From an uncultured virus (IMG/VR IMGVR_UViG_3300050581_000229) (lineage: Duplodnaviria > Heunggongvirae > Uroviricota > Caudoviricetes): DNA of 64,000 bases. The translations under genes and the position numbers were made by a program. The DNA lies in the IMG/VR virus record IMGVR_UViG_3300050581_000229; one strand, 5' to 3'. This document shows, piece by piece, positions 807 to 49,614 of this stretch. Numbering within the stretch: the stretch's first letter is position 1; each line of letters starts with the position of its first letter. The notes under the pieces were generated by a model. The model did no database searches and had not been told where the DNA came from. It saw nothing but the letters and a program-made list of their open reading frames with translations.

Positions 807-878
807 CTCCTCGAACTGGACTCGAACCAGTAACCTACCGGTTAACAGCCGGTTGCTCTGCCATTGAGCTATCGAGGA
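807..878 (-). tRNA. tRNA-Asn(GTT), CCA not encoded
   Basis: Canonical cloverleaf: acceptor TCCTCGA/TCGAGGA, D-arm GCTC-AATGGCA-GAGC, anticodon loop CTGTTAA, T-loop TTCGAGT, discriminator G. Confidence 0.97.
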
Positions 879-922
879 ACAGCGCAAATTGCCGAGAAAT
901 CCACACTTTCACATTTCTGGAC

Positions 923-11277: not shown

Positions 11278-13878
11278 TTAAAACCCTAATGACGCCCAGT
11301 ACGCGGCGTCATCTTCACTGTGATGATTCGCAGCGACGTGCTCTGCCACACCAGCAGGGATTTCAATCCGCGAATCATCTTCAACCGAAACGGTAGAGAG
11401 TTCATGGAACGTCTCAGCCACGAAAGACGCTCTCTTGCTTGGAGTTCCATCGGCCTTCTTTACTGGCTTGAAACTGACTAAATAGCGAGTGCCAATTACC
11501 GGAGTAGCATCGCTCTGTGCGATGATCGCGTACTTATCCAACGCATTGCGATGCTCATCGAGGAATTGGAGCTTCACCGTGCGCTCTCCGCGCCGAGTGA
11601 TAACCTCGCGGGCTTCGGTTACAACCTGATCTTTTGGATATATGGTGCGGCCATACACTATTCCACTAAATACAACTGGCTCCTTCCCAGGTTGATAGTC
11701 CTGGCGGATTAGATCGAAGCAAATGTCCGGCAGCGCGGCAAAGAACAGGCTCCCTTTACTGTTTTCAGACTTCGTGAAGCATTCCCACAGGCCGGATGCA
11801 GCGGATTCCAGCTTCTCGCGGCTCCAAACACCTACCACGCTGGCCCAGGTATTGCGCCAGGCTTGGAATATTTCATGGCGGCGGGAATCCACATCCTCCT
11901 GGCACTCATACATCTGGCTTAATGCCTCTACTGTCTGTTTGTAGAAAGCAACTGCTTGGTCGTGCCCCTCGCCAGAGCGAACCTTGATCCAAGACGCAAA
12001 CTCATTGTTTGGCCTTGCGGTCCAATTCACCACCGGCATGTCCTGGTAGAAACGCTTGCCTAATGGAGTTCTATCGCTCACGAAGTGTGTAGGATTGATA
12101 ACTGTCCCGTATTTAATTGCCTCAAATACGGTATCTTTGTACTTTGCCGCGATTTCCTTGTGCTCCATATCGCATACAGTCCACGGATGGACCTTGCCGT
12201 TGCTTAACTCACGGTGAGCCACGTCGTTCTTGGTGATAAACAACCGAGCCCACTCGCGGATCGCGTTGACCAGATCGCGGTCCGGCGCACTAAACTTCTT
12301 AGCCGAATCCACTGCCTTCTGAATCTCTTTGCAGAGAATTGCAGTAAGCAGGCCCACAAAACCATTGAGACTTGTTGGAATATCAGCTTTAGGATCGCGT
12401 GCAACCAGCATCTTGCGGAGCTTGGCAAGTTCAGGGCATGAGCGCATGTTCATCCCAATGCGATACGCTGTCACAAGGTCGGAGAGCGTATTGTTGGGCT
12501 CACCCACGTTCACCGACATCATGGTAGCCAATGCGTCGGCGCGAGATTGCGGGGTTGGAGCCTGTTCTGCGCGAACCTTATGTGGAGATGTCTCAGAATT
12601 AGCACGCAGCCAGTTCCACCACGCTTCCGTGGTTGGGCTCCCAACGGCAACGAAGTTGCCTTCGTCACCATCGAAGTCCAGCGCAGCGCGGTTGCAGGTT
12701 TTGTTATTAACGAAGAAGCACCCTTCCGGGGTATTCACGTCATTGACACATTCCACCGCAAACGCAGCGCGGGATTCCACAAATGGATTGCGGATACCAA
12801 CATACTTGCCTTCAACCAGGCTCATTGGGTTGGTGCGGATGACGCCATCGGGGAGCAGGTGATCGCACTGGGCCATGAGACCTGTGCCGCGCATACCGCC
12901 GGTAAGTACGATGCGCAAAGCCATCTTCGAGATAACCCCTTCGATTTGGCGGGTAACGCCCGTCATATACAGGAGCTTGTTATTCCCGATGTCTTTGCAC
13001 AACTGAGATAGGGACTTGAGGATGGTGGTAAATGCAACTTCGTCATCCTCATCGCGGATTTCTACCGCTTCAGCGAAGGTCTCTGGATCGCGGCTGATCT
13101 CCCAAAGGTGCTTTATCGCGGCAGGGGAATCAACTGCAATCGCGTCATCAACGGCCTTTGGGAACTTCTCTGCCACCTGATAGCCAATCTCAGACACATG
13201 AGCTTTGGCGAGTCTCACAACGCCCAATGGGAACTTGGTTTGGAAGAACTCGGGCAGTTCCGCGAGATTGCCTTTTACCATGCTCTTCGGGAGCACGAGA
13301 TCGACACCATCCGGCAGATCGGCGGGAGCAACAGTGCCCTTCACAACCACGCCGGTAGCTCCGAAATCGAAGCAACCGCGTACCTGGCCGACGCCATAGA
13401 GACCAGCCTTTGCACCCCAGGACTGGCGATACAAGCCGGAGCCATCGCCACACATCGGGTAATCATCCGCAACGCTCTGCACACCACCGGCAATCATGTG
13501 GATTGAAACGCATGGAGTGAACAGCACTCCCAGGCGGATGATGTCTTTGACACCAAACCAGCCGTCGAAGTGCGCGGCAGTCTCATCGTCCACGGCATAC
13601 AGCATGGACGACTTCGCAGACGAATTGGCATTGATAACGCGGTAGTGCAATCCTTCGTGCTCGATCCCTTGCTCTGTCAGGACTTTGAGCGCGGCAGGCA
13701 AATCGCCTTCCTCGCGGAAAGCCTTGAGATTCAGGATGATGTAGCGTGCGCCGAGTATGTCGATGAGCTTATGGAAGTATTCGATACGCTTGGTTGGGCT
13801 CCCAACCGTGAATGGAGCACCAGGATTTAAGGTAAGAATAGTGATCTCGCGGGCGATATTAGTTGTAGAATCTTGCAC
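11278..13878 (-). CDS. Single-subunit two-barrel RNA polymerase, YonO / eukaryotic-RdRP-like
   Basis: GDGSG (D145), QVRG..VVKG..LPKSMVK, GIRNP (R363) and DFDGD (401-405) in canonical order; GTG start with AGGAG RBS. Confidence 0.9.
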   Translation of the reverse strand: MQDSTTNIAREITILTLNPGAPFTVGSPTKRIEYFHKLIDILGARYIILNLKAFREEGDLPAALKVLTEQGIEHEGLHYRVINANSSAKSSMLYAVDDETAAHFDGWFGVKDIIRLGVLFTPCVSIHMIAGGVQSVADDYPMCGDGSGLYRQSWGAKAGLYGVGQVRGCFDFGATGVVVKGTVAPADLPDGVDLVLPKSMVKGNLAELPEFFQTKFPLGVVRLAKAHVSEIGYQVAEKFPKAVDDAIAVDSPAAIKHLWEISRDPETFAEAVEIRDEDDEVAFTTILKSLSQLCKDIGNNKLLYMTGVTRQIEGVISKMALRIVLTGGMRGTGLMAQCDHLLPDGVIRTNPMSLVEGKYVGIRNPFVESRAAFAVECVNDVNTPEGCFFVNNKTCNRAALDFDGDEGNFVAVGSPTTEAWWNWLRANSETSPHKVRAEQAPTPQSRADALATMMSVNVGEPNNTLSDLVTAYRIGMNMRSCPELAKLRKMLVARDPKADIPTSLNGFVGLLTAILCKEIQKAVDSAKKFSAPDRDLVNAIREWARLFITKNDVAHRELSNGKVHPWTVCDMEHKEIAAKYKDTVFEAIKYGTVINPTHFVSDRTPLGKRFYQDMPVVNWTARPNNEFASWIKVRSGEGHDQAVAFYKQTVEALSQMYECQEDVDSRRHEIFQAWRNTWASVVGVWSREKLESAASGLWECFTKSENSKGSLFFAALPDICFDLIRQDYQPGKEPVVFSGIVYGRTIYPKDQVVTEAREVITRRGERTVKLQFLDEHRNALDKYAIIAQSDATPVIGTRYLVSFKPVKKADGTPSKRASFVAETFHELSTVSVEDDSRIEIPAGVAEHVAANHHSEDDAAYWASLGF

Positions 13879-21797: not shown

Positions 21798-21829
21798 CAC
21801 TTGACAATAACTGATCCTCTGCTCATTAT
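21798..21829 (+). promoter_or_regulatory. Sigma70-like promoter, copy 1 of CACTTGACAATAAC
   Basis: TTGACA-N17-CATTAT upstream of the terminase operon. Confidence 0.6.
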
Positions 21830-24690: not shown

Positions 24691-26285
24691 TGGCCGGTGA
24701 AGCGGTTATTACGGATGGAGATATTTCCCTGGGGCTTGCACGACCAAACAACTATGTTCCCTATACTCCGACGCTCCCGACCAGCCCGGCGGTCTTGCAA
24801 TGGCAGGTTGAGCAGAGCAATTACCGTCGCTATTGGGAATGGTTCTACGGAACAGCATTGAATGAGGAAGACCCGGAAGCCTCAAGAGAACAGCAGGAAC
24901 CGGCCTATTTATGGCCTCTCCATATCAACCCAATCAAGTGGACGTGTATGAAACACGCGGCGGCTCTGTTTGGGGAGGTTCCTGACGACTACGACTCGAT
25001 GGTTCGCATCTCATTCCGCGACGACGATAACCACACCACGGCAAAGTCGAAGAAACATGCTCAGCGGATTAACCGTGTGTGGTTTGACTCGCATGGCAAG
25101 GAAGCGATGGCGACCGCTGGCGTCATGGGCCAGTTCATGAAGGGGAGCTTCTTCAAGGTGAAGTATGACCCCCTGGACAAGAGCCTGAGATACAAGACGA
25201 AGGTCGAGTTGCTAACCCCCGACTTCGTGCTTCCGATCTATAACTCCGCGAACTTCTGGGACCTGGTGGAGTGCTACGTGATGTATTACATCGGCTCCCA
25301 GGAAGCCGAGAGCCGGTTCGGAATCAAGGTTCCCCAGCAAACCAGCGCGGGAAAGATTCTGTATTGCGAGCACTGGACTAAGACCAGGTACGAGATTACG
25401 GTAGGTGGCCTAATTCCAACCTTTGACATCGGCAATTACTCCGTTGAGGAAGGTGGTCGTAATCCCTTCGGCTTCGTGCCATTCGTGTATATCCCCCATC
25501 CCGAGCGGGTCGGGAATTTCTATGGTATGAGCCACGTCGATGACCTTGAAGGGCTGACTTGCGAACTCAATAGCCGCATGGCGGATGTCGGGGATTACGT
25601 GAGCGCTAATAGTGAGTCAATGTATTGGATTCGGAATGTCACCAAGAAGCTGGAGCCCAAACGCCTTGATAAACGTCACCTTGCGATTGATCTTGGCTCC
25701 AAGAATGCCCTTTCACAGTCTGGTGATCCTGAGATCGGTAGACTAGATACCCCAACGGGAACTGCGGTCCACAAGGAATACATTGACCAGCTTCTTAAGA
25801 TGATCGACCGCACCGGCCATCTGTCGCCTGTCGCCTATGGCGAGGATGAGGGGAGCCAGCGGTCGGGAACAACCCTGGCGGCCCGCATGTGGACAACCAC
25901 GGCTCATATCAAGCGCGAACGGGTGCTATTTACCACCGGATTACAGCGGCTTGATTGGATGATCGGTGAAATCATGCGTGTGAAGGGAATCGATGGTGTC
26001 ACCCAGGAGGATGTTTGGCTCAAGAACACCATTGGCTACTTCCCCGCGCTACCGATGGACCGCAAGGAACTTGTGGACGAGGTTGCCGTGCGCAAGGGAA
26101 CTCACACCATTTCTACCCGCCAGGCAGTTGAAACACTCTCGGACGGCTCAATCGACACAGACGCGCACCTGGCGGAAATCGAGCGGGACATCGCGGAAGA
26201 AACGAAGAACCAGACCGAGATCGTGCAAGCGAAAGGATTCCAAAATGCAAAACCTGACACTAAACCAGGCTCTAAGCCTGATTGA
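24690..26285 (+). CDS. Portal protein (SPP1 gp6-like)
   Basis: About 530 aa after terL; NPFGFVPFVYIP..FYGMS.V.DL, SG..L, IS...A. Confidence 0.88.
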   Translation: MAGEAVITDGDISLGLARPNNYVPYTPTLPTSPAVLQWQVEQSNYRRYWEWFYGTALNEEDPEASREQQEPAYLWPLHINPIKWTCMKHAAALFGEVPDDYDSMVRISFRDDDNHTTAKSKKHAQRINRVWFDSHGKEAMATAGVMGQFMKGSFFKVKYDPLDKSLRYKTKVELLTPDFVLPIYNSANFWDLVECYVMYYIGSQEAESRFGIKVPQQTSAGKILYCEHWTKTRYEITVGGLIPTFDIGNYSVEEGGRNPFGFVPFVYIPHPERVGNFYGMSHVDDLEGLTCELNSRMADVGDYVSANSESMYWIRNVTKKLEPKRLDKRHLAIDLGSKNALSQSGDPEIGRLDTPTGTAVHKEYIDQLLKMIDRTGHLSPVAYGEDEGSQRSGTTLAARMWTTTAHIKRERVLFTTGLQRLDWMIGEIMRVKGIDGVTQEDVWLKNTIGYFPALPMDRKELVDEVAVRKGTHTISTRQAVETLSDGSIDTDAHLAEIERDIAEETKNQTEIVQAKGFQNAKPDTKPGSKPD

Positions 26286-26383: not shown

Positions 26384-26415
26384 CACTTGACAATAACACA
26401 TCAGAACATAACAAT
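26384..26415 (+). promoter_or_regulatory. Sigma70-like promoter, copy 2
   Basis: CACTTGACAATAAC; TTGACA-N17-AACAAT upstream of the scaffold and capsid genes. Confidence 0.5.
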
Positions 26416-28563: not shown

Positions 28564-29208
28564 ATGAAATCCTGGGGTGACTTGCTAACCGAGTTCGACG
28601 CGCTGCTAGACGATAGTACACGCACATCGTATTCGGAAGACTTGCGCAAGAGCGCGTGGCAGAGGGCTTGCGAGAACTTCGCAATCTCTCACACAGCGCC
28701 ATTCCGAACGGCAACGGCTTCGGCCAGCGCCTATGCGGAAGGCACATCAGCGGCGTTGCCCCAAGATTTCCTGGAACTACCTTCGGGGGGAGTTGAAGCC
28801 ATTGGGGATGGATGGCTTGAGCCGATTACGGTCGAGCCGGGGGGCTCCATCCCCAACGACGGCTATCTGCTGATGGCAGATGGCATCTATCTGCCCAAGG
28901 GATATACGAATGTGCGCCTGTGGTACTACGCGCACTATCCAACGGTGGAAGATGACACGACAACGTTCGGGCTCCCCTCGTGGGCAGAGTGGGCAGTCAT
29001 GAACCTGGCAATGGCATACATGCTCTATCCATCCATGATGAATCAACAGCTTCTACGGCAATACCAGGATCGAAGCATGGCAGGTGCGCCAGAAGATAAC
29101 CCCCCGCGCAAGCAGGCTCTCTTCCTGATGACGGTCTACAACGACATCATCCGCACGGTCTCCCCGCAAAACCGGGGAATGATCTACACACCTGGTGCGC
29201 GGGTATGA
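28564..29208 (+). CDS. Head-tail adaptor
   Basis: Follows the capsid gene; ALPQDFL, VRLWYYA..P. Confidence 0.7.
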   Translation: MKSWGDLLTEFDALLDDSTRTSYSEDLRKSAWQRACENFAISHTAPFRTATASASAYAEGTSAALPQDFLELPSGGVEAIGDGWLEPITVEPGGSIPNDGYLLMADGIYLPKGYTNVRLWYYAHYPTVEDDTTTFGLPSWAEWAVMNLAMAYMLYPSMMNQQLLRQYQDRSMAGAPEDNPPRKQALFLMTVYNDIIRTVSPQNRGMIYTPGARV

Positions 29209-30197: not shown

Positions 30198-31325
30198 TTG
30201 AGGATTCTTGGGATCAACCCGAATGAGAACATCGGCGCGGTTGAAGCGTATCGTGTCGTTTACCCGCTCCACAAGATGTCACTGCTAGGGCACCAGACGT
30301 GGGTAATGCCCGCGATGGACGTTGCGAAGATGGTCAAGGATGGGCATAACCCATTCGCGCATCTGGACATGGTGTTGGTGCAGCGTCTCACTGGTGGCGG
30401 GGATGACTGGAAGACTTTCGTGACCGCAGCGCGGGCCGCTGGTTGCAGCATTGTTGTGGATTACGACGACGACTACACCAATGAGTACCGTAAGGTATGC
30501 GAGGGCGGGATTCCAGACCTCTCTTATTTCAGCGCGATCACGGTATCCACGCCCTATCTGAAGCGCGTGATGCGGAAATACAACCGCAACGTCGTGGTAA
30601 TCCCGAACCTCGTCGTGCCGGAAGTCATCAACGGGGGGTTCAAGCGGAAGATCGGTGGATTGTGTATCGGGCTGACCGGCTCTGAGACGCACCGCGAGGA
30701 TTGGCAAGTTGTCATCGAGCCGCTAAAGCAGATATGCCAGGAGTTTCCTGATGTTTCATTGTTTGTATCCGGCTATCTGCCCGATGAACTCCGGTCGGTT
30801 CCTAATCTGGTGACTCTGCGGTCCCTGGGGATGGTTCCTGGGATGGAAACGGACAACTTCTACATCCCGCTCAAGGAATACGGCTTCATCCTGCGCAACA
30901 TCGACATCTTGCTTGCGCCGGTCGATCCCGACGATAAATTCAATCACTCGAAAAGCAATTTAAAAGCAATCGAGGGGCAGATGAGCGCCAGGCCAGTTGG
31001 GAGCGCAACTGGCGGGTGCATGGTGATTGCTTCCGGCGATTTACCGAATTACCAGGATGCAATCAAGGGTGGGCGAACCGGGTTGTTGGTAGATCACCAC
31101 AATCAGGACGCCTGGTATGAGGCTCTCCGCGAAGTCATCACAAACCCGAAGCATCGTGTGGAGATGCAAATCGCGGGATATGAGTCTTGTTTGAAGAACT
31201 GGAATATTCACACACGTATCGGGGAGCGCGTGGCGGCGTATCACGATATTTGCGAATGGGATAAGCGGCAACAGCCGAAATTGGCAGTCGAGTTGGCGGG
31301 CTTGGCGACAGGAGTTTCAAAATGA
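30198..31325 (+). CDS. GT-B glycosyltransferase within the virion module
   Basis: YRVVYP, VQR, VDYDDD, VSTPYL, VIPN, IGLTGS..H..D, DI.LAP....FN.SKS.LK.IE, TGLLV. Confidence 0.88.
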   Translation: MRILGINPNENIGAVEAYRVVYPLHKMSLLGHQTWVMPAMDVAKMVKDGHNPFAHLDMVLVQRLTGGGDDWKTFVTAARAAGCSIVVDYDDDYTNEYRKVCEGGIPDLSYFSAITVSTPYLKRVMRKYNRNVVVIPNLVVPEVINGGFKRKIGGLCIGLTGSETHREDWQVVIEPLKQICQEFPDVSLFVSGYLPDELRSVPNLVTLRSLGMVPGMETDNFYIPLKEYGFILRNIDILLAPVDPDDKFNHSKSNLKAIEGQMSARPVGSATGGCMVIASGDLPNYQDAIKGGRTGLLVDHHNQDAWYEALREVITNPKHRVEMQIAGYESCLKNWNIHTRIGERVAAYHDICEWDKRQQPKLAVELAGLATGVSK

Positions 31326-32497: not shown

Positions 32498-32971
32498 ATG
32501 ATTCTCGCAATTCCTACCGAACAGCAATTCTTCTTCGCGGTTGACGACGATGGCAAAGTAAAGCGCATCGAGCAACCCGAATACGATTCCGAGCATGGTT
32601 TCTCGGTGACGTTCCGCCAGGGCACCACCCAGGATGATCGACAGATCACAGATTGGACTACCCGGCGCAAGTCCATGATCGACAAGGATGGTAACTACCA
32701 AGAGTTGTATGAAAACAACCCTGACTACATCGCGGAGCTTGAAGTTGGCCTGACGCTATGCGCCACAGACTTGCAGCTACCGAAGAGCGGCCATCCCGAC
32801 GAGGGCGAAGACCTGGCATTTCAGGATGTCGGTGGTGTCCGGCGTATCAAGAACCAGGCGCAATTCAAACGCTGGTGGGGCATTACTCGCGTGCCAATCG
32901 CTCGCGCAATCTATGAGGCGTGTCTGGAAGTGAATCCAGATTGGGGGCCTAAAAGCAAAGGAATACTATGA
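32498..32971 (+). CDS. Tail assembly chaperone (gpG-like)
   Basis: Between the tail tube and TMP genes; ends EVNPDWG. Confidence 0.75.
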   Translation: MILAIPTEQQFFFAVDDDGKVKRIEQPEYDSEHGFSVTFRQGTTQDDRQITDWTTRRKSMIDKDGNYQELYENNPDYIAELEVGLTLCATDLQLPKSGHPDEGEDLAFQDVGGVRRIKNQAQFKRWWGITRVPIARAIYEACLEVNPDWGPKSKGIL

Positions 32972-33290
32972 GTCACTGGCCGAGCTAGGACAGGCGGCCA
33001 AAGACTATTACGAATCGATCTATCTCAGACAACCTCAGTTAGCAGGCATCATCATCGAAGAGAAGCAGCCGGAAGCTCCCGAGCAAGTCGTGATGCTGCG
33101 GGAACTTGAAACATATCACACATTACCCTGGCCCGGTGGACTTCTCAATCAACCTCACATCCTCATGCAGCAATTGACGGTTTGCCAGAACGCTCGCGCT
33201 GGTGCGATCCAACTTCGCAGGCGGCAGGACGAGATGGCTAATCCAAAGGCGGTGAGGCGTGATTATCAGCAACCCGGAACTCAATACTGA
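32946..33290 (+). CDS. Frameshifted chaperone extension (gpT-like)
   Basis: Open +1/-2 frame from 32946 (GLKAKEYYESLAEL...LPWPGGLLNQP) overlapping the gpG stop. Confidence 0.65.
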   Translation, partial: GLKAKEYYESLAELGQAAKDYYESIYLRQPQLAGIIIEEKQPEAPEQVVMLRELETYHTLPWPGGLLNQPHILMQQLTVCQNARAGAIQLRRRQDEMANPKAVRRDYQQPGTQY

Positions 33291-36200
33291 ACTCAAGCAG
33301 TGGCAGGAATCCCTGAGAGGTAAGGGTTTTGGCAATGCCCAGGTTTGGCTTGACGAGTTCAACGGGTCTCCCTCGATAGTTATCTCCCCCGATCCGGGGC
33401 GAATGAACCCCGTTCGTATCGACAAGTTTCAACATCGCGGAGATATATACAGCGCCTATGGGCGTGTCTTCTCCGGTGCAATGGAACTGCCTGAGAACGG
33501 TAAACCAACCCCCTTCAGCCCTCTCGAAGACCTGAGTATGCAGGTGAAAGCCGCGATTGGATATGCAGCCGAGAATTGGCAATCCTCTGGCGATGCCGCG
33601 TGGCAAGACCCAAGCTGGTTCCAGAAGTCCTTCACGAACTCCTTCATGGCGTTGACCTCCGGCTATCGTGCTGCCACATCTCCCCTAAGCTCGATGCCGC
33701 AGTATGCGTTAGACCGCGAGGCGTCCACACGCCTAGTGCGCAGCAGCAGCCCCAATGCCAAAAGCCTGATCCAACAATATGCCACCCGCAACAGCCTTAT
33801 ACAGGCTCAGGACTTCGGTGATATAAGTGAGCCCGAAGAGGCAAAATCGAACTCGATGTCCCTACTCTCTCCAAAGGGGATAGGGAACTACACTCTGTCC
33901 AATTGGGATTACCAGAACGGCCAAATTTCCTTCTATTCCAACAAAGGCCAGAAGGCTCTTGAGGGTCTTAAACTTCCACAGCGTCTAAAGCTGGACTTCC
34001 GCCAACGGGCGGAAATTCAGGGGCGTGAACCGATAGATTCCGGTAGGTATGGGAACTTCTACTCCTCTACCTACCGCTTTATTAATCCTGGTGAACAGAT
34101 CGGTTCCGGCTCGGCTGCTGCCAGCCCTGAGTTCTTGCATCTGCGCGGCCTTGGGGCTGAATCCACGCATGTACAGGTCATTCCACGAGATATGGCACTC
34201 ACGGACCTGAAACTATTGCGCCCAGGTTCGTATGGGCCAGGGAAGTTGGCACTCGCCACACTAGACGCAACAGGTCAAACGGTAGACGCGGAGGCGACCG
34301 GCGCTCAGTTCCGCACAATCTCGGATGTAGGAATCTCCCTTGGCTACGGGAAGCACGTCGCTGAGCAGACTCAAAACATGCTCCGTGTAGCGGAGATGGC
34401 AGACGAGCAGATCGATGTCAATGGAACCAAATACTCCGCCTGGGAACTGACAAATTCGCTCGCGAGTCTACAGCGCGAGACTAAACCGTTTGCAGATGCG
34501 TTGATGCCAACGCTGTCACGCGCTTACAACAAGATCACTGGGAACGACGCGACATTCACATTTGGCGGTGTTTCCAGGGGGCAAACCGGGATTCGTTTCA
34601 CGCAGCGGCTTGGCTATGACAACCTCGCTAACAAGCTCGATTCAAAGATCGGTAATTACTACGAGCAAGGTCTATCCGAGCAGTTGGGAGCCCAACACAT
34701 CGATCAGGCGTTTGGGCCGGATGTTATCAAGCAACAACGCACTTTCCTCGCATCCAATATCCTGGGGGTCTTCGCGTCTACTGACCCACGCTTTGCTGCC
34801 GCGCAAGCATATGTCAAACAGCAACTCTACGACCCCATCGCAAAGACTGATCCATCCTATACGCCCAAGCAGTTCCAGGAAGATGTGTGGGGATTGCCCC
34901 AAGAGGCTATCTCTACAACGATGCAGGGCATGGAATCGTTGCTTCCACGCGATGACTATGGGAATGTAATCCGAACTAGAGCCATCACGATGACGCCGGA
35001 ATACCACGGCAGGATTTCTCGCGTCAACCAGGAAACGCTTGACACGATAGCACAGGTATCGCCGGATTTGGCAGCTTCATTCGCAGACAGAAGCAATGGC
35101 ACGAATTACGCCATGATTGCGGCGATTCAGAACCGTGGCGGCTACGACATCACCAGTGCGCTCGCCCAAGAAACTCGCGGCCTATTTGACCCGACCGACC
35201 CATCCATAACACCACATGCGCAAGCTGGCATTATTTCCGATTGGCTCAAAAACATTAGCCCGGATGGTCACGACCTGTCGCGGGAAATGCTCACAGTACG
35301 CCAGGGAGATAAGTCCTACTCCGTCCTACCGCCTTCGGTGATGAGCCAATACGCAGAGCACGGTGGCGACTTCTTCAATATGTGGGCAGGCATCTTCGGG
35401 CCTGAAAAATATGCCCAGTATCAGGACTATCAGGGCCGTAATCTAGCCACGCCGCTTGAGGTTACTCGTGCCGGTCGTCTTGAGCAATATGGCGGTGGGC
35501 TTCAGGCTCAGGATACAGATGAGCTTCGCAGAGGCGCGGAAACCTTTCGTGGAACAGTAGGTGGGACGTTCAGCTACACATCCGCCGATTTCGTGAAGGA
35601 TAACGAGATCATCGTTGGCCCCGAACAGGTGCGGATGTTTGCAGAGCAGATGGGCGAGACGCCAGAAGAGGCGTCACTAATACAACAGAAGCTTACCGAG
35701 CGCCTGCAAGACCCGAACGCGAAGCGATTGGGCATGATTGGTCGCGGCTGGCCTGGCGTTACCGATGCGAGCGCACTTACCCTTAAGTACAACGAGAACG
35801 TCATTTCTCCGACCGTAAGCCGCGCATATCAGATGGCCCACGTCCGCGATGAGGACGTAGATAAGTCGGTCTTCCTCGGTGGATTCCGTTGGGATAAGGA
35901 TAAGCAAGACTTTGCGCCTCTACGTGGTATGGGCGAGTTTACTCGTAATAGCCTGCCCGTCAGCGCGCAAGCTCTCACGACGTTGTGGGCGATGGGTGGT
36001 GACCGGAATTTCAGCACCCGAGCACAGCAGCTTGCACTTGCACATATCGGCAATGGGGCCGAACCGAGCGTCAAGAGTGGGATGCCGCTTGTTCGGGCAC
36101 GCGACTTCACACATGGCTTTGGCGACATCTCTGCATATAACCCAACCATTGAAGGTTTCGGCCAGAAAGGACAAAACCCCTGGGCGGAAGCACGCCAGGA

Positions 36201-39200
36201 GGCAATTGACTTCGCTACCAGCACTGGCGTCCCTGGACTGGCGAAGACTGTAGCAGCCGTCACTGGTCCAGCGTCTATTCTAGGCAGAGCAGTCGGACGC
36301 TATAACGATGTTCACCAAAAGATGGGCATTTGGAACTTGCAGAAGATGCTGCAAGGAGCGCTATCTGATGACAACACAATCAACCAGGCATTCCCACGAT
36401 ACGGTGAAACGCTTCGTTCTACTATTAGAAACGAGTACGGCGAGGATGCGGCAAATATCGCTTCGCCCGCTCACCTCGCGAGAGAATCAATACGTCGCAT
36501 TTACCAGGCCCCGCTTGATCTGATTGACCCGACCCTCGGCTCGAACGGCTCAGCCGCGCAGTGGGTTGAGCACCTTGGCAAACTGCAATACGACGCCACG
36601 ACCTCCCCGAACCAGCGCTTGCAGGGGTTGCTTACCTCGATGACGAATGGCGGGAACGGGAGCGAGTACGTTTTTGACCCAGAGACCATTGGAGCCTTAT
36701 TTGGCCGTCATGGCGATACCACGCACATGCAGGCAATCAGCGAGGCGGTAACGAACTACCGAAGCGGTGACACGAACGCGCTCAATGGTCTGGTGAGTAT
36801 GGAAGATTCGGATAACGCTTCTGGTGCCCAGACATTGATTGAGACTGCGCAGGCATATCAGTTCAATGAAAAGATTGCCAATGGTGATGTGTCACAGGTC
36901 GGGACAGATCGTTATGAAATCCGCAGCGGTCGGAACGGTTTCATCGTTGGGCAAAACACGATTGACCGTTACAAACAACTCACGAATACCCCGCTCTATG
37001 GGCAAATCGCCCAGATGCTAGGGAAAAAGACCAAGCGCGGTCTTGGTGAATTTGTTCGTGGGCTGGCTCTCTCTCCATCAGCAAGGCGGCCAATGCTTCG
37101 TGCCCAGGAACGACTTGGCCTAACAAAGCCATTCCTGAAGGCAGACTCCAACGGCCTAATGACGGAGCCAGCAGATGACACACCGACACCGCCTGCTGGT
37201 GCGGCAAATGGCCCTTCACCGCGAGTTGGGAACCCAACCGCTTCCGGGCCTACGCATGGTGGTGGTGGCTCACAGTACGGTGGCGGCAGCAATAGGCCAC
37301 CGGCTAACAACACACCAGATGATCCATTTAGCGATATGCCACCAGACAACGGCGACCCTGGTGTATCCAGCAATACCGCTGCACCAAGTGGCGCTGGCAA
37401 CTTCAACGTCAACATCAACTCGGATACCTTCGAGAGGGGGATCTACCGTGCAGTTAGGGATCATCTGACGGAGCAGGCAGGCCCGAAGTGGCAGGGTCGT
37501 GCTACGAGGCCAGAAAATGTCGGTACATTTGAAAACCTGGTTTCTCAAATCGGCCCGAATGGTGAGTTTGATTTCGAGAGCCATGCTCAGGAGCTTGAGG
37601 GCCTTGGATACCGCGAACGTGGCTTCTTCCGAAATGTGAGCGATTACTACTCCGGCAAACTACGTGCAAGCAATCAGCGGTTCTCTGCTCGCAACTCAGC
37701 CTGGGGAATGTACTTCCGAGAAGATGCAGACCTGGGCAATCCCACAAGAGGGCGTCTGCGCTCCATTGCCGTAGACATGCAGAATGGCGAGTCCGAGTAC
37801 ACGACTCGCTTCCCATCCGGCGAACAAAGCCCCTCCCTCTCTGCGGGTGACAAGAACTCCATTGATGAGTTCACGGCCAAAGTCAATGAGGCCCGCGATG
37901 CACTAAAAGACAACATCGCCAACATCCGCGAGCACACCAAGACCATTGGCGCGGCAAAGGAAGTTTGGCAGAAGATCACGCAGAGTCAGGCCGGGTTAGT
38001 CGAGGCGCGTGCTCAACTGCCCGATTCGGCGGCGACCACGGCGGAGGGGAAGGCTGCTCTCTCAAGCTCTCGTCGCGTGCAGGCGGGCCAGAACGCCTAC
38101 GAGACCATGATGCGGGCGGAGCTTAAGGATCAAGGATTCCCCGACCAGGACATCAACTCTGTCTTCTCGCAATCAGGTGGCAGAAGCGGTAAGGGGGTAC
38201 TCAATACACTTGCCGGGCATCTCTTGAGCGGGATGGCCGAGTTTCAGATGGCTCGCGGGTATCGGGCAACCGTACAGCCAATCATTAGTGCGGCGCAGGG
38301 TTATTACCAGCAAGAACTTACGGCTGCGGGTGCGCTCTACCAATCAGGCGGACAGGGGAAGCTTTCGGACATTCAGGGATACTCCGCCAGAAACACGCTT
38401 GCCGATATAAGCACTGGATTCGGTCGAAACGCCAACTCATTCGTGAGTGGCATCACGAATCTAGTCGGGTCAGGGAATGGATCGGGACTAGGAGCAGGGC
38501 TGGTTGGGACAGCCGCGACGGTACTAGGGCCAGCAGCCGGGACCGCTCTTATTGCCGGGGCGCTTGGGGCAAGTGCGCCAGTAGTGGGTGGTCTTGCTCT
38601 GGCTGCTGTCGTTGGCTCGCTTGCATCCTACGTCTCAGGTGCACAAAGTAACCCGGTCGCAGCAGTTCAGTATGGGACCACCAAAGGCGCTTCCATCTGG
38701 AATGATGCTACTGGATTCTTTGCTGACCAGGATTATGAAAATAGGCAAGCAGCACGCAAGGCGTGGAGAGACAGGCAACAAGGCATCCCGAGTGGTGGTA
38801 GTGGCAGCCAGCAAGGGATGTCGCTTTGGGAGAATATCGCTGCCGGATCAAGCGGTGGGACGTTCGCATCTCCTGGGTTAGCGAACATCTTTGGTCCATC
38901 AGCCAGTGTCACATATCCGACGCCTGAACCCTATCTCGACCAGAAAGCACGAGACGAGAAGATCGCCCAAGCTAATGCGGAGATCGCAGCAAAGGGTAAG
39001 TGGGCGGTTAGCGAGATGTCACCTCTCGCGCAACAGGCCACGCTTACCGGCAACATCCCCAACTATATCGCCCAGACATACACCATTGGCCTGGATACCG
39101 CGAAGAGCCTTACTTCGCTTGTCTATGGTGTTACCCAGGGGCCAGAAGCTCAAGGTGCGCTTGAATACCTTTCTGATGTCACCTCTCGCGGCGGTGATGC

Positions 39201-41343
39201 AAGCCAGACACTAACCAATGCCACCAGAATTGCCCGCGCAATGGGTAACTTCAGCGTTGCAGGTGGGATTAGCAGGCTCAGTACCCAGAAGAAGGCTGGC
39301 AAGACGCTCTCGGGGCAACAACTCGCGCAGGGCGCAACCAACATGGATGTCCTGGGCGCGGATAACTTGCGCTCCACGCTTATCTCTGGCGGCTTCTCCG
39401 AGAATCAGATCAGCAACATCCTATCGAATTGGGATGAATCTAGTGGACGGACGGCTACCACAACCGATGCTGCCGCGCTGCAAATGGTGGCTCGTGCCGC
39501 GCAGGGCGATTCCACTGCGATTACGATGGGAAATGCGAGTGGGATGTTTAACTCTGGCTCTCCATTCGCAAACTCCACGATAGCTTCGATGAAGCCGATG
39601 ATGGACATCACCACTGGCTTCAACCTGTTCGAGCGCAGCATGTACGGTTTGAACGGGTACAGTATGCCCTCGCGCACGCAGATCGGGAGCTACTTTGCCG
39701 GTGTTTCGTCACAACGGGCTGGCGCACTATCAAGTGCAACAACCTTCCAGGGGATTGATACCTGGGCACGGCTTGGGCAGTCCTCTATCGGCCAGGGCTA
39801 TCAGCAGCAGATCATCTCCGCCGCGAACGGTAGCTCATACGGCTACGGCGGCATCGCCGGTCTTGAGACCTTAAGCGACTCGTTCCAATACTCGGTTCAG
39901 GATAGGCTCTATAACGCCGGGCAAGCGCTCCAAAAGAAGGAGAGCCAGGTTCAACACGCCTTCACCGTCAACACCGAGCAGCCGCAACAACTGATCTCCA
40001 TCCTGATGGACTACGCCTCCAAGATGGGTGGCACGGTCAATACCGACTACATGAAGAAGAATGGTATCCCCGCCTACAACGCGGGAGCCGGTTCTATCTC
40101 GTGGGAACGGCAAGACCTCGCGCTTCAGATGGCATCTGCCGCCGCGCAGAACTCGCAGCAGATGACGCAATACGGTTGGCAGCTTGAGGATGTCAACCGC
40201 CAGCAATCACGCCAGAACATCAGGAACGACTGGCAACGGCAGTCCTTCGCTCTGCAAGGGCAGCAGATGGCGGAGAACATCGGCTTCCAGAACTACCAGT
40301 TCCAGTACCAGGCCGGTGAGATGGCTCGCCAGAAGCAATACTACGAAGAGGATTACGCCTACAACCAGCAGGTGCGGCAACTCCAACACAACTGGCAGAA
40401 CCAGGACTACGACCAGTCCATCCGCCGTGCTACAGGCTATGAGCGACAGCAACTCATCCGCGAACGAAACCGCTCCAACCAGCTATACAACCTGGAAACC
40501 GGGCAGAACGAGAAAGAGAAGGATCGGCAAGAGGAATCCTTCACGCGGCAGGAAGAATACTTCAAAAAGCAGGTAGAGCACTACCAGAAGATCACCAAGA
40601 TCGACCAGGAGCAGTTTGCCCTACAGAAGAAGCAATTCGAGCAAGAGGCCAAATGGCGGGATGAGGACTTCGACATCCGGCGCGACCGCATCAAGCAAGA
40701 GATGGGCTGGACGGAGCAAAATTACAACCGCACGATGGAGTCCTACAAGATTCGTCAAGAGCAGTTGGATGCTGAGGCTTCGGCGGCGGAAACCAACTAC
40801 AAGCTCTCGACGACCCGCTTCGAGGCGCAGAGGCAAGAGGAACTGGAACTCTACAAGCTATCGCAGACCTGGATTGGGATGACCCAGCAAGAGCGTGACA
40901 TGGTGCAAACGCTCAACCAGAGTATCCAGGACATGCGTTTGAAGGAACAGGACAGGCTCAAGCAGACCTTCCAGATGGAAGTGAACTTCTGGAACAAAAT
41001 TCTTGCGGCACTTGCAACTGCGACCCAGACCACTTTCAATCCAATAGACTCCGGCGATACATCAGATACCACAAACTCTGACAGCGGAGTCAATGGGCAA
41101 TCGTCGCCTTCGCTCCCAATCCATGACTACCCAGGTCCGGCGTCGGCTGGTCAACCGTACAAGATTGGCACGCAGGAAATTTTCATCCCGAACACGAATG
41201 GGCAAATCATTCCTCTTGGCGGTGCATCCAGCGGCTTCACGATCCAAGTCACGATGCCGAACGGGAAGGTGCTGGCTGAAGCGGTTATGCCGCATCTGCC
41301 AAGCGCAATCAAGCGGAACAGCCGGAGGTCATACAGCAATTGA
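33259..41343 (+). CDS. Tape measure protein with a putative N-terminal two-barrel RNA polymerase domain
   Basis: TMP position; hydrophobic G/A segment, long Q/E/R coiled coil, TMP-type C-terminal GP.SAGQPY.IG..EIFIP...GQIIP; N-terminal GRGWP (R829) and DEDVDK (864-869). Confidence 0.8.
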   Translation: MIISNPELNTELKQWQESLRGKGFGNAQVWLDEFNGSPSIVISPDPGRMNPVRIDKFQHRGDIYSAYGRVFSGAMELPENGKPTPFSPLEDLSMQVKAAIGYAAENWQSSGDAAWQDPSWFQKSFTNSFMALTSGYRAATSPLSSMPQYALDREASTRLVRSSSPNAKSLIQQYATRNSLIQAQDFGDISEPEEAKSNSMSLLSPKGIGNYTLSNWDYQNGQISFYSNKGQKALEGLKLPQRLKLDFRQRAEIQGREPIDSGRYGNFYSSTYRFINPGEQIGSGSAAASPEFLHLRGLGAESTHVQVIPRDMALTDLKLLRPGSYGPGKLALATLDATGQTVDAEATGAQFRTISDVGISLGYGKHVAEQTQNMLRVAEMADEQIDVNGTKYSAWELTNSLASLQRETKPFADALMPTLSRAYNKITGNDATFTFGGVSRGQTGIRFTQRLGYDNLANKLDSKIGNYYEQGLSEQLGAQHIDQAFGPDVIKQQRTFLASNILGVFASTDPRFAAAQAYVKQQLYDPIAKTDPSYTPKQFQEDVWGLPQEAISTTMQGMESLLPRDDYGNVIRTRAITMTPEYHGRISRVNQETLDTIAQVSPDLAASFADRSNGTNYAMIAAIQNRGGYDITSALAQETRGLFDPTDPSITPHAQAGIISDWLKNISPDGHDLSREMLTVRQGDKSYSVLPPSVMSQYAEHGGDFFNMWAGIFGPEKYAQYQDYQGRNLATPLEVTRAGRLEQYGGGLQAQDTDELRRGAETFRGTVGGTFSYTSADFVKDNEIIVGPEQVRMFAEQMGETPEEASLIQQKLTERLQDPNAKRLGMIGRGWPGVTDASALTLKYNENVISPTVSRAYQMAHVRDEDVDKSVFLGGFRWDKDKQDFAPLRGMGEFTRNSLPVSAQALTTLWAMGGDRNFSTRAQQLALAHIGNGAEPSVKSGMPLVRARDFTHGFGDISAYNPTIEGFGQKGQNPWAEARQEAIDFATSTGVPGLAKTVAAVTGPASILGRAVGRYNDVHQKMGIWNLQKMLQGALSDDNTINQAFPRYGETLRSTIRNEYGEDAANIASPAHLARESIRRIYQAPLDLIDPTLGSNGSAAQWVEHLGKLQYDATTSPNQRLQGLLTSMTNGGNGSEYVFDPETIGALFGRHGDTTHMQAISEAVTNYRSGDTNALNGLVSMEDSDNASGAQTLIETAQAYQFNEKIANGDVSQVGTDRYEIRSGRNGFIVGQNTIDRYKQLTNTPLYGQIAQMLGKKTKRGLGEFVRGLALSPSARRPMLRAQERLGLTKPFLKADSNGLMTEPADDTPTPPAGAANGPSPRVGNPTASGPTHGGGGSQYGGGSNRPPANNTPDDPFSDMPPDNGDPGVSSNTAAPSGAGNFNVNINSDTFERGIYRAVRDHLTEQAGPKWQGRATRPENVGTFENLVSQIGPNGEFDFESHAQELEGLGYRERGFFRNVSDYYSGKLRASNQRFSARNSAWGMYFREDADLGNPTRGRLRSIAVDMQNGESEYTTRFPSGEQSPSLSAGDKNSIDEFTAKVNEARDALKDNIANIREHTKTIGAAKEVWQKITQSQAGLVEARAQLPDSAATTAEGKAALSSSRRVQAGQNAYETMMRAELKDQGFPDQDINSVFSQSGGRSGKGVLNTLAGHLLSGMAEFQMARGYRATVQPIISAAQGYYQQELTAAGALYQSGGQGKLSDIQGYSARNTLADISTGFGRNANSFVSGITNLVGSGNGSGLGAGLVGTAATVLGPAAGTALIAGALGASAPVVGGLALAAVVGSLASYVSGAQSNPVAAVQYGTTKGASIWNDATGFFADQDYENRQAARKAWRDRQQGIPSGGSGSQQGMSLWENIAAGSSGGTFASPGLANIFGPSASVTYPTPEPYLDQKARDEKIAQANAEIAAKGKWAVSEMSPLAQQATLTGNIPNYIAQTYTIGLDTAKSLTSLVYGVTQGPEAQGALEYLSDVTSRGGDASQTLTNATRIARAMGNFSVAGGISRLSTQKKAGKTLSGQQLAQGATNMDVLGADNLRSTLISGGFSENQISNILSNWDESSGRTATTTDAAALQMVARAAQGDSTAITMGNASGMFNSGSPFANSTIASMKPMMDITTGFNLFERSMYGLNGYSMPSRTQIGSYFAGVSSQRAGALSSATTFQGIDTWARLGQSSIGQGYQQQIISAANGSSYGYGGIAGLETLSDSFQYSVQDRLYNAGQALQKKESQVQHAFTVNTEQPQQLISILMDYASKMGGTVNTDYMKKNGIPAYNAGAGSISWERQDLALQMASAAAQNSQQMTQYGWQLEDVNRQQSRQNIRNDWQRQSFALQGQQMAENIGFQNYQFQYQAGEMARQKQYYEEDYAYNQQVRQLQHNWQNQDYDQSIRRATGYERQQLIRERNRSNQLYNLETGQNEKEKDRQEESFTRQEEYFKKQVEHYQKITKIDQEQFALQKKQFEQEAKWRDEDFDIRRDRIKQEMGWTEQNYNRTMESYKIRQEQLDAEASAAETNYKLSTTRFEAQRQEELELYKLSQTWIGMTQQERDMVQTLNQSIQDMRLKEQDRLKQTFQMEVNFWNKILAALATATQTTFNPIDSGDTSDTTNSDSGVNGQSSPSLPIHDYPGPASAGQPYKIGTQEIFIPNTNGQIIPLGGASSGFTIQVTMPNGKVLAEAVMPHLPSAIKRNSRRSYSN

Positions 41344-46246: not shown

Positions 46247-48576
46247 ATATAGGAAATCCGGTTACTGTTTATAACGCCGTCAACGACAAGCGTTCAAACC
46301 TGCGCGTAGCGAAGGTCGCGAGTGTCGGCAAGGGCACAGTCGATGTGCGAGTAGTTGGATCGATGACCACCCGCTACGACGTTCCCCTGGCTGGCGGCGG
46401 AACCCCCGCGAAAGGGAGCACCGTATACCTCAAAAAGGAAGGCAACCAGTGGTTCGCCTACGCGAGTCAGGGCGGAGTTGGGGTAACGCAGTATGTTTCC
46501 GGCAGCGTCGGAAACACGTCGCTCCCGCTACAGCACGCGAGGACTCACGCGGTCGGCGGCACGGACTACTTAAGCCCATCCGCAATCGGGGCGGCGACTC
46601 CAAGCGACATCACCACCGCGATTTCCACGCATCTTGCGGACACCGACCCCCATACGCAATATGCCAATGAGACGCGCTTTGGCGAGTGGTTTGCTGGACA
46701 ACAGCACAACAGCCTATTGGGGCTAACAACCGGCGACCCTCACACGCAGTACCTTACGCCTGGTCGTGGAGATGAAAGGTATCTCAAACTATCTGGTGGC
46801 ACGTTAGCTGGTGCTCTATCCGCGCCAGGCTTCTTCCCGACAGAACCAGATACCTATGACCTGGGGAGCGATGAAAATCGGTTCCGCAGTCTGCACGTTG
46901 CTTCCATCGATATGACGCTCTTCAAGGAAGAGACCGCGCAACTGTTCGGTGGATACCTCATCGTGCCAAAGGGAACCGGGAGCCTGGCCGCCGACACGTC
47001 GTTGGCGACCGCCACGTTCCCAGGCCAGCCGTGGGTGCCATCCGGGCAGACGGAACCAGTGATGGACTTCGGGCAATCGATGACCGTTGGCGACATTGTG
47101 CTCATGCGTGGCAAGGATTCCAGCGGCTCGTTCCGAAGCGAGTTTGTGCGCGTTGGGGATGTAATTAGCGGGACGGTGTACCAGATCACGCACGATTTGA
47201 TGGGCGCTGGAACAGCATCGGCATGGTCATCTGGGACACCCTATGCAATCCTCGGCCGGGATGACGACGGCTGGATCGAACTGCAATCCTACGACACCCC
47301 GCGCTTCTCGGTGTTTACCCTGGATAACGCCAGCGGAACGCCCACAATCTCCGAGCGCATCAGAATAGGCGACCTGAATGGCTGGGACACCGCTGGCACC
47401 ACGCGCTACGGCATTGGGATCGGCGACTATGCTGCCGGGAACTACTTGCGCTATGAGCCCACTGACGGCCTTATCGTGAAAGGCGGAGACGGCAATGTCT
47501 CAATCGACCCATCCGGCATCGCGGTCTCGACTATCACCTCGTCCGACTACCACAAGGCCGCCTATATGTTCGGCTCGCCAAGCGACCCGGTTGGCTACAT
47601 GCAGTATTACATCGACGAGGTAGCCAGCGGGTATCCCGCCTTCTTGCAGATATTCCAGAAGAACTCGTCCGTCGGCGGCATCTGGCTGCGCTCCTATTCG
47701 CCCAACGCGAGCACCAGCACATACGATGATGAAGCCTCACTGGTCATTAGCCCCGATGGATCGATTACCCTTGGCGGACCGTATTACAGAAGCGGGATTG
47801 GTGCTGCATACGCCTGGAACAGCTACTATGCCAAGTTCACCTTCGACTCGACGACCATCAAAGGCACGCTCAACGTCCAAGACGGCAGCGAATACTACAC
47901 GTCCAGCGGGCGATCTTCAAGTGGCGGGATCAACGTTGGCACTGCTACCGGCGCAGGAACGGGACAAATTAAGGCGAGTGGTAATGTGTTCGCAAGCGGA
48001 TTGAACCTGGGGACCGCGATTGATGCGGCGGCGGGAGAACTGAAAGCATCTGGTAGCGGGTCTTTCGCCGGGGGTGTCAATATCGGGACCGCTTCGGGCG
48101 CTGGCACAGGACAAATTAAGGCGAGTGGCGACGTGTTTGCAGCAGGTAAGAATACCGGGGTTCAAGCTCAGATTCTAGATAATCATGTGTTCTATATAAC
48201 ACAAGCAATAGGCTTGACGACAAGTTGGCAAGTCATAACTGGGTTATCTACTTCCCATACGCCCGCCACTAATGAAATCGCTGAGGTAACAATACTCTTG
48301 TCGATTGCGCAACACGCTGGTGCGGCAGCTTGCCAGAACAACGATCAGCTTGTCGGAGCATTCTCTTTGTACTATGACTCGGCTGACCACTATTCTGATA
48401 GTAAAGGATCGTGGGCCACCGGAGGTATTGGAACAGTATGCATACTTATTAAAGCATATGCACTTCTGACGTCCGGCAAAACATATACGATTCGTGCTGT
48501 TGCTAAGAATGCCACCGGCGCGAGAGGGCTTGTAGATTGGGCATCATGGATGGATGTTAAGTATCGCGCAGCTTAA
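46243..48576 (+). CDS. Tail fibre / receptor-binding protein
   Basis: HARTHAVGGTD, two DPHTQY, YLKLSGGTL.G.L, RIGDLNG, three ~24-aa repeats. Confidence 0.8.
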   Translation: MNIGNPVTVYNAVNDKRSNLRVAKVASVGKGTVDVRVVGSMTTRYDVPLAGGGTPAKGSTVYLKKEGNQWFAYASQGGVGVTQYVSGSVGNTSLPLQHARTHAVGGTDYLSPSAIGAATPSDITTAISTHLADTDPHTQYANETRFGEWFAGQQHNSLLGLTTGDPHTQYLTPGRGDERYLKLSGGTLAGALSAPGFFPTEPDTYDLGSDENRFRSLHVASIDMTLFKEETAQLFGGYLIVPKGTGSLAADTSLATATFPGQPWVPSGQTEPVMDFGQSMTVGDIVLMRGKDSSGSFRSEFVRVGDVISGTVYQITHDLMGAGTASAWSSGTPYAILGRDDDGWIELQSYDTPRFSVFTLDNASGTPTISERIRIGDLNGWDTAGTTRYGIGIGDYAAGNYLRYEPTDGLIVKGGDGNVSIDPSGIAVSTITSSDYHKAAYMFGSPSDPVGYMQYYIDEVASGYPAFLQIFQKNSSVGGIWLRSYSPNASTSTYDDEASLVISPDGSITLGGPYYRSGIGAAYAWNSYYAKFTFDSTTIKGTLNVQDGSEYYTSSGRSSSGGINVGTATGAGTGQIKASGNVFASGLNLGTAIDAAAGELKASGSGSFAGGVNIGTASGAGTGQIKASGDVFAAGKNTGVQAQILDNHVFYITQAIGLTTSWQVITGLSTSHTPATNEIAEVTILLSIAQHAGAAACQNNDQLVGAFSLYYDSADHYSDSKGSWATGGIGTVCILIKAYALLTSGKTYTIRAVAKNATGARGLVDWASWMDVKYRAA

Positions 48577-49583: not shown

Positions 49584-49614
49584 CACTTGACAATAACTGA
49601 TTAGGTTTCAGAAT
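49584..49614 (+). promoter_or_regulatory. Sigma70-like promoter, copy 3
   Basis: CACTTGACAATAACTGAT identical to 21798-21815; CAGAAT at 16-nt spacing. Confidence 0.55.

Follow-up and report, generated by a model that had tools for sequence, protein, structure and literature searches.

Does a virus from outside Thermus carry an RNA polymerase into its host as part of its tape measure protein? The question is raised by one giant gene in the uncultured caudovirus IMGVR_UViG_3300050581_000229 (IMG/VR), of which we analyzed a stretch of 64,000 nucleotides (nt), hereafter called the window. A preliminary description, made from the sequence alone, had proposed that the first ~1,300 amino acids (aa) of the encoded protein form a two-barrel RNA polymerase and that the remainder is a tape measure. 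The precedent it cited was borne out: in gp96 of Thermus phage P23-45 a virion RNA polymerase is fused to the tape measure, as stated in the available text of PMC10770324 (PDB 8H2M, 8H2N). Judged from the sequence, our analysis makes it plausible, though not proven, that the giant gene is a second, non-Thermus example of a tape-measure-fused virion RNA polymerase. We lean, with some reserve, towards a gene that is the tape measure of a ~75-kb temperate long-tailed prophage and whose N-terminal ~1,290 aa are a divergent single-chain two-barrel polymerase.

Architecture and position of the giant gene

The giant open reading frame (ORF), its parts and its upstream neighbors are the following:

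33259..41343, + strand: giant ORF P0001, GTG start, 2,694 aa, with an N-terminal globular domain, a linker and a tape-measure-like C-terminal half
33259..37128, + strand: N-terminal domain (aa 1-1290), candidate virion RNA polymerase, alignable over its whole length with the homologues P0003 and P0004
37156..37443, + strand: P/G/N/D-rich low-complexity linker (aa ~1300-1395), of different length in the homologues
38500..38640, + strand: hydrophobic G/A-rich segment (aa 1748-1794), from a Kyte-Doolittle scan
40126..40968, + strand: coiled-coil-like helical region, charged and Q/E/K/R-rich (aa ~2290-2570), from composition
41125..41220, + strand: C-terminal motif DYPGPASAGQPYKIGTQEIFIPNTNGQIIPLG, loosely like EPAGIVHRGEFVF near the end of lambda gpH
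32498-32971, + strand: 157-aa ORF directly upstream of the giant gene
32934-33290, + strand: start-less ORF of 118 codons in the +1 frame, overlapping the end of the 157-aa ORF and stopping inside the start of the giant gene

The gene, 2,694 aa long as the preliminary description had stated, runs in one frame of the + strand from the GTG at 33259 to 41343, and the stretch that the description had quoted, GGTFSYTSADFVKDNEIIVGPEQVRMF...GMIGRGWPGV...PTVSRAYQMAHVRDEDVDKSVFL, is found in the translation. The linker was recovered as well, with 16% P and 35% G+A+S in aa 1301-1400. Within the C-terminal half, Q+E+K+R make up 42-52% of each 100-aa block of aa ~2300-2560, and this charged helical region is the most conserved portion of that half in the family consensus. 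The hydrophobic segment is present in the homologues P0002 and P0004 and absent from P0003 at the same Kyte-Doolittle threshold. The end motif PGPASAGQPYKIGTQEIFIPNTNGQIIP is present too; a motif of this type stands at the end of many tape measures.

The two overlapping ORFs that precede the giant gene look like the G/GT pair of tail chaperones; the start-less +1 frame at 32934-33290 may be a frameshifted chaperone product, and no slippery site was identified in the overlap. Downstream, a 129-aa ORF is followed by ORFs of 1,506 and 777 aa. Two features of tape measures are present, the gene order and, in the protein, an extended helical body together with a hydrophobic segment. The proposed tape-measure position and C-terminal features were thus upheld by the hydrophobic segment, the coiled coil, the end motif and the neighboring ORFs; by position and composition only, a tape measure is the best reading of the gene. 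The giant protein matched 0 families in Pfam (E<=1), PHROGs (E<=0.1) and NCBIfam (E<=0.01), and tblastn of its C-terminal half found nothing among 50,697 phage records.

A small family with an invariant acidic triad

An exhaustive phmmer search with aa 1-1200 against 1.84 billion representatives (E<=0.001) returned three homologues of the N-terminal domain:

P0002: 81% identity, 2,077 aa, alignment beginning at residue ~650 of P0001
P0003: 36% identity, 3,532 aa
P0004: 27% identity, 2,782 aa

Since its alignment starts only at that residue, P0002 is probably cut 5' at a contig end. Each of the three full-length proteins (P0001, P0003 and P0004) combines the N-terminal domain with the coiled-coil half at the C-terminus, which makes the fusion an old one. 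No further copy was confirmed when viral, metagenome and genome contigs were scanned for the locus seven times, the query being the alignment, P0003 or P0004, and among 50 genomes of the family to which the nearest genome belongs, the domain occurs in that genome only. The claim that the element is probably not from Thermus agrees with tblastn of the N-terminal domain against the 50,697 phage records, which gave no match to Thermus phages or any others.

Over the 1,420 aligned residues of P0001, 191 columns are invariant. Three motifs concern a possible active site:

35848..35862, + strand: putative metal-binding triad D864-E-D866-V-D868, preceded by the invariant R863
35746..35754, + strand: invariant G830-W831-P832 (GWP), 32 residues before the triad, at the R-x-P place of known polymerases
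34633..34647, + strand: K459...K463, followed by x-G465, unproven candidate Lys motif of a second barrel

The triad lies at nt 35848-35862, where the preliminary description had placed it, and D864, D866 and D868 are kept, together with R863, in 4/4 family members at 27-81% identity. It reads DEDVD twice, DDDGD and DNDAD, and corresponds at the level of the motif to the DxDxD metal-binding loop of the two-barrel superfamily. At ~6% Asp, about 0.5 bare DxDxD motifs are expected in 2,694 aa and two were found (aa 864 and 2468); it is the conservation of the triad, not the bare DxDxD itself, that exceeds chance. P851, S854 and Q858 are likewise invariant in 4/4 members. R829, by contrast, which had been put forward as part of the beta-prime-type barrel, is not conserved, being replaced by Ala in P0003 and by His in P0004. 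The KLDSK stretch (K459-K463) was located at 34633-34647 as quoted, and K459, K463, G465, D482 and K491 are invariant in the 3/3 members that cover these positions.

Calcium-binding loops carry the motif DxDxDG. Such a loop was ruled out for the triad, in which position 6 is K, R or M and not G.

Resemblance to the catalytic barrel of gp96

The fold was approached by profile comparison with hhalign, using as templates the gp96 family (P23-45, stolb1, TSP4), gp64, phi14:2 gp66, E. coli RpoB and RpoC, and the family of P0005, a second polymerase gene described below. One segment resembles the double-psi beta-barrel of the beta-prime type (DPBB-A):

35596..35886, + strand: DPBB-A-like segment (aa 780-876), from hhalign against the gp96 family

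It contains, in this order, IIVGP, MFAEQMG, an insert, G-W-P, PTVSRAYQ, R-DEDVD and FLGGF, for which we infer a strand at IIVGP, a helix at MFAEQMG, two strands after G-W-P, a helix at PTVSRAYQ and a strand at FLGGF. When the full-length family profile was compared with that of the gp96 family (1,443 x 1,260 columns), the best match joined P0001 780-873 to gp96 711-788 (E=0.035, score 29.8), a score above those of 30/30 column shuffles (maximum 22.6) and of the reversed profile (24.9). Its Viterbi core lies upstream of the triad and sets the IIVGP strand and MFAEQMG helix on gp96 IVPIVIGKEMAAKLGL; realignment runs on past GWP and sets RDEDVD on VDFDGD of gp96. The remainder downstream of that core, where a two-barrel polymerase would have its bridge helix and trigger loop, gave when compared alone a second, collinear match, P0001 972-1000 with gp96 862-901 (E=0.039, score 24.3), above 84/84 shuffles.

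Restricted to the barrel region, the comparison with gp96 DPBB-A gave E=3.2e-4 with DxDxD on DFDGD, that with the P0005 family E=0.058 with GWP on RNP and DxDxD on DFDGD, and that with phi14:2 gp66 as a single sequence E=0.02 with GRGWP on GYRIP. For a negative control, the same five templates were set against 12 further stretches of 141 aa from the family profile; the minimum among these 60 comparisons was E=0.052, ~160 times above the value for gp96. Ten known-against-known polymerase pairs, the region-limited positive control, ranged from E=7e-5 to 0.38. At full length, the gp96 family matched E. coli RpoC with E=0.012 and phi14:2 gp66 with E=0.057. Such weak full-length values among known families agree with the available text of PMC10770324, where similarity between these polymerase families is confined to the DxDxD region.

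The match to gp96 DPBB-A is thus weak but reproducible. Of the beta-prime double-psi barrel proposed earlier, the location is supported by the best full-length profile match, on gp96 DPBB-A with the triads in register, whereas the role given to R829 is not supported. For aa 1-1290, the ESM Atlas gave no usable match and no stored model. The evidence for a polymerase is real but thin and comes mostly from one family, gp96.

A second polymerase gene in the same element

The window encodes a further polymerase, remote from the tail locus:

11278..13878, - strand: P0005, 866-aa single-chain two-barrel RNA polymerase, from motifs, ESM Atlas and hhalign

P0005 carries KGT (residues 180-182), RNP (363-365) and NRAALDFDGD, with DFDGD at 401-405 (nt 12664-12678), and these motifs are invariant in 3/3 members, namely P0005 and two homologues. 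In the ESM Atlas, which holds the exact sequence, its features score 0.96 to clusters named 'RNA dependent RNA polymerase' (RdRP), and its structure reaches TM 0.63 to a cluster with PF05183 in the aligned part and 0.41-0.57 to eukaryotic RdRP clusters. By hhalign against gp96, DPBB-A was matched with E=7.3e-5 and DPBB-B with E=0.0049. The gp96 DPBB-A profile was also run on the window's 183 stop-to-stop ORFs (100 aa or longer), each taken as a single sequence, and P0005 came out on top (score 26.6, E=0.0048). An RxP...DFDGD barrel, a KG barrel and an RdRP-like fold are all present. Motifs, Atlas and hhalign therefore indicate that the prophage has its own single-chain polymerase of the QDE-1/YonO type, and P0005 is the candidate non-virion polymerase of the prophage. 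The PF05183 HMM did not match it even at E<=10, searches by sequence found no Pfam, NCBIfam or PDB entry, and tblastn against the phage records gave no match.

The QDE-1/YonO type (PF05183-like) is a relative of P0005, with its KGT, RNP and NxAxxDFDGD motifs, and not of the giant ORF; between P0005 and the giant ORF's N-terminal domain, BLASTP gave E of at least 2.3 and the full-length profile comparison E=0.43. YonO is encoded by the temperate prophage SPbeta, as P0005 is by the prophage here. Two HNH endonuclease ORFs lie nearby, at 7788-8264 and 10783-11271 (both - strand), one with AP2; the latter is directly downstream of P0005.

Integration into a tRNA gene

The preliminary description had taken the element to be integrated, and a tRNA-Asn repeat, an integrase and flanking bacterial genes confirm this. 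The left end of the prophage lies within the window:

835..885: 51-nt attachment-site repeat, overlapping tRNA-Asn (806-878, - strand)

An exact second copy of the repeat is found ~74.8 kb to the right (G001:C109:45982-46032), adjoined by a tyrosine integrase (E=6.6e-33) at the prophage end (L011:10379-11641). Further out lie a cation-efflux gene, an iron-dependent repressor and ABC transporters. Duplicated repeat, integrase and bacterial flank together identify the element as a ~75-kb temperate prophage in tRNA-Asn.

Comparison with known systems

The gp96 type is also found in the Thermus phages P74-26, G20c and TSP4. Like gp96, the giant ORF sits in the tape-measure slot and has an N-terminal domain of ~1,200-1,300 aa with the triad at similar depth (aa 779 in gp96, 864 here). 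A second, separately encoded two-barrel polymerase is a further likeness, as P23-45 has a virion/non-virion pair in the available text of PMC10770324; since P0005 parallels this two-polymerase scheme, we count it in favor of a polymerase in the giant ORF.

The differences are considerable. The architecture and position would suit a polymerase and a tape measure in one ORF, but neither half of the giant ORF matches a named family in Pfam, PHROGs or NCBIfam, and there is no BLAST or HMMER similarity to gp96 (tblastn against the 50,697 phage records; phmmer and hmmsearch against PDB). With gp96 itself as query, only 10 Thermus phage records are found. The triad is DEDVD, DDDGD or DNDAD here and DFDGD in gp96, and GWP stands here for RNP; no metallopeptidase was detected here (0 Pfam families, E<=1), and the protein has 2,694 aa instead of 5,002. 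Unlike P23-45, the element is a temperate prophage whose host is not shown to be Thermus, and its partner polymerase is QDE-1/YonO-like, with no detectable paralogy to the fused domain. The fold and activity of the giant-ORF domain are putative; if the domain works at all, it would do so in the manner of gp96. Full-text literature searches returned no primary report of a tape-measure-fused virion RNA polymerase beyond the P23-45 paper.

phi14:2 gp66 and other crAss-like virion RNA polymerases (PDB 6VR4) are likewise virion-carried, single-chain two-barrel enzymes, and their triads are non-Gly: DFDID in gp66 and, among four crAss-like relatives compared, DFDVD in three and DFDID in one. Annotated as a catalytic RNA polymerase subunit, gp66 is reportedly active with DFDID. 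Its ...IGYRIP... aligns in a motif-consistent way with ...IGRGWP... here; on the other hand, it is unfused to a tape measure and belongs to a podovirus-like virion, and the similarity is non-significant against the family profile (E=0.57). With lambda gpH, the giant gene shares its place, preceded by a G/T-like ORF pair and followed by a small minor-tail-like ORF (lambda V-G-T-H-M), a helical coiled-coil body and the loosely similar C-terminal motif. Unlike in lambda, the upstream overlap uses the +1 frame where -1 is usual, the protein carries an N-terminal domain of 1,290 aa in addition, and no family model matches.

Points against a polymerase and alternative explanations

A number of results weigh against a tape-measure-borne two-barrel polymerase. 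The two AlphaFold2 models, built on the 4-sequence alignment, had mean pLDDT values of 37.1 (aa 1-1200) and 33.2 (aa 640-1100) and 0 residues >=70; both were unusable, and no barrel was seen. The barrel region aligned no motifs with RpoC (E=0.77) or gp64 (E=0.62), and the full-length family profile found no match in RpoC, RpoB, gp64 or the P0005 family. A five-member crAss-like profile, in place of gp66 alone, weakened the match from E=0.02 to E=0.57; its top alignment was still motif-consistent, and known polymerases scored 3.8e-4 to 0.1 in this test. Run on single sequences, the gp96 DPBB-A profile gave E=0.52 for P0001, E 0.1-0.18 at the correct place for P0003 and nothing for P0004, and among the 183 window ORFs the giant ORF was outside the 12 best listed. 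HMMER (phmmer, hmmsearch) returned no polymerase from the full set of PDB chains, among which the gp96 entries should be. At the putative active site, the usual Gly is missing from the triad in 3/4 members and Trp replaces the Arg of R-x-P. As for the tape measure, no family model in Pfam, PHROGs or NCBIfam matched, and no shorter relatives of the C-terminal half (aa 1400-2694) were found. Experimentally shown virion polymerases such as those of P23-45 and N4 come from lytic phages, and the phage here is temperate.

The search for the second, Lys-bearing barrel belongs to the same side of the balance. The beta-type barrel proposed earlier (G282, STHVQV, K459/K463, IDQAFGP) found no statistical support in profile comparisons: three region-limited comparisons gave E 0.41-0.70, relaxed local hhalign E 0.16-0.34, and the N-terminal remainder against gp96 E=0.63, a score surpassed by at least 15/55 shuffles. 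A sliding-window scan reached a minimum of E=0.059, a weak test since gp96 or P0005 against RpoB also fail there. Three segments are candidates, aa 320-370 (GPG...QFR...GK), 455-495 (K459/K463-x-G) and 560-585, of which the following is an alternative to the earlier proposal:

34216..34368, + strand: second-barrel candidate aa 320-370, with GPG326-328, QFR350-352 and GK364-365; non-significant hhalign only

Order and spacing of these motifs are as in GDG / QVR / KGT of gp96, gp64 and P0005, and R352 is invariant. GRYGN...INP (aa 262-277) was tried as an RpoB-like second-barrel motif and rejected (E=0.41, Arg not conserved).

How far do these points favor other readings? The N-terminal domain could be some other ejected cargo, that is, a nuclease, a nucleotidyltransferase, a hydrolase or a metal-binding structural or pilot domain, with a likeness to gp96 due to chance. 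The lack of fold evidence from either AlphaFold2 model, full-length profile E-values of only ~0.03-0.04, a second barrel not located in profile searches, the absence of signal against RpoC, RpoB, gp64 and the crAss-like profile, and a P0001 single sequence that finds nothing all speak for it, and acidic DxD-type loops occur in many enzyme classes. However, the catalytic barrel is where the best full-length match lies, and the two conserved motifs are in register there; the region-limited value for gp96 lies ~160 times below the best of 60 controls, and no other family emerged from Pfam, PHROGs, NCBIfam, PDB or the ESM Atlas. We regard other cargo as rather unlikely, though it deserves serious consideration. 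A related possibility is a domain of two-barrel polymerase ancestry that has ceased to polymerize and serves as a DNA- or RNA-binding pilot or scaffold in genome entry, while P0005 transcribes. The non-canonical site (GWP for RxP, no Gly in three of four triads, no Lys barrel located) and the complete, canonical-looking P0005 elsewhere in the prophage would suit such a history. Against it, the strict invariance of the three Asp and R863 down to 27% identity suggests retained catalysis, and phi14:2 gp66, reportedly active with DFDID, is annotated as catalytic; a retired enzyme seems improbable.

The label of tape measure itself might be wrong, whatever the N-terminal domain does, if the gene product were an internal protein of a short-tailed virion or one that such a virion ejects. 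The only named connector match is indeed a sub-threshold adaptor of SU10, a podovirus, library searches recognized no tail tube, sheath or tape-measure family, and the C-terminal half has no shorter homologues among those found. Yet chaperone-like overlapping ORFs lie directly upstream, the protein has, besides its hydrophobic segment, a long coiled coil and an end motif like that of lambda H, and a small ORF followed by giant ORFs lies downstream, as in lambda H-M-L. A short-tailed virion is the reading to which we give the least credence.

Possible course of infection

If the giant gene encodes a polymerase fused to a tape measure, infection may follow the scheme for gp96, on which our model is built, including the Fig. 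5 legend, in the available text of PMC10770324. By analogy with gp96, the tape measure would lie in the tail tube and be expelled at infection ahead of the DNA, its hydrophobic segment helping to build a channel. The N-terminal domain, on its flexible P/G-rich linker, would enter the cytoplasm with the leading DNA and, with the catalytic Mg2+ held by D864, D866 and D868, could transcribe the first genes of the entering genome without the host polymerase. Later transcription would be carried out by P0005 and/or the host polymerase.

More tentatively, and with somewhat less confidence than in the fusion itself, we can picture an integrated, siphovirus-like two-polymerase programme, in which a virion polymerase of a new R-DxDxD family (without Gly, and with Trp for the Arg of R-x-P) acts before P0005 and a palindrome and/or an 18-mer, both described below, serve as polymerase-specific signals.

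If a polymerase fused to the tape measure is confirmed, its injection would be a recurrent strategy compatible with lysogeny rather than an oddity of thermophiles, and a family of unrelated appearance in a temperate, mesophile-like prophage would show that the design arose, or lasted, well beyond Thermus. It would also widen the active-site variation tolerated among two-barrel polymerases and raise the question of how the immunity of a lysogen handles an incoming phage with its own polymerase. For biochemistry, the N-terminal domain offers a compact (~1,300-aa) candidate single-chain polymerase.

Candidate transcription signals

Two repeated sequences were observed. Of the palindrome GTTGGG-NN-CCCAAC, the window contains 10 exact sites, against 0 in 100 shuffles:

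6651, 7485, 12632, 13793, 15703, 18042, 34683, 37225, 42791 and 50911: palindrome sites in the window
L011:2258 and L011:10362: further palindrome sites

In the nearest genome (5.6 Mb), 12/12 sites fall inside the ~75-kb prophage. About half lie within ORFs, in different reading frames, which argues for a signal at the level of DNA.

The 18-mer CACTTGACAATAACTGAT occurs three times on the + strand, with the 14-nt cores exact in all three:

21798-21815, + strand: 18-mer copy
26384-26401, + strand: 18-mer copy
49584-49601, + strand: 18-mer copy

CACTTGACAATAAC has three exact copies in the window, all on the + strand, where a mean of 0.28 is expected at <=2 mismatches; each occupies a gap upstream of one of the late gene blocks (21832, 26473 and 49678). 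The 18-mer copies include TTGACA, with plausible -10 boxes 17 nt downstream. The 18-mer could be a host sigma-70 promoter or, given its length, a promoter of P0005.

Further features of the window

Of the head and connector genes, the following were recognized, together with an enzyme gene amid the head-tail structural block:

24684-26285: SPP1-type portal
28564-29208: SU10-adaptor-like match, sub-threshold (22.8 bits, cut-off 27)
30198-31325, + strand: GT1-type glycosyltransferase, at mid-block

A terminase-like ORF gave no match by tblastn against the phage records. A GT2-type enzyme is encoded elsewhere in the prophage (L011:6291-7073, - strand), and glycosylation of the virion or of the host surface by these glycosyltransferases is possible. 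A NUDIX gene at 149-694 lies outside the prophage. Besides the HNH endonucleases, the window encodes ERF, Prim-Pol and an RNA ligase, the last at 3735-4655 (- strand; PF09414, E=1.8e-15) in the early-region block. A 37-nt GC-rich hairpin is found in two copies, 8381-8417 and 8814-8850, 433 nt apart and 89% identical, which flank the ORF at 8424-8804. Finally, a 72-nt segment within the 777-aa ORF is repeated with 76% identity 147 nt apart (47923-47994 and 48070-48141, + strand), pointing to a domain repeat in what is probably a tail fibre or baseplate protein.

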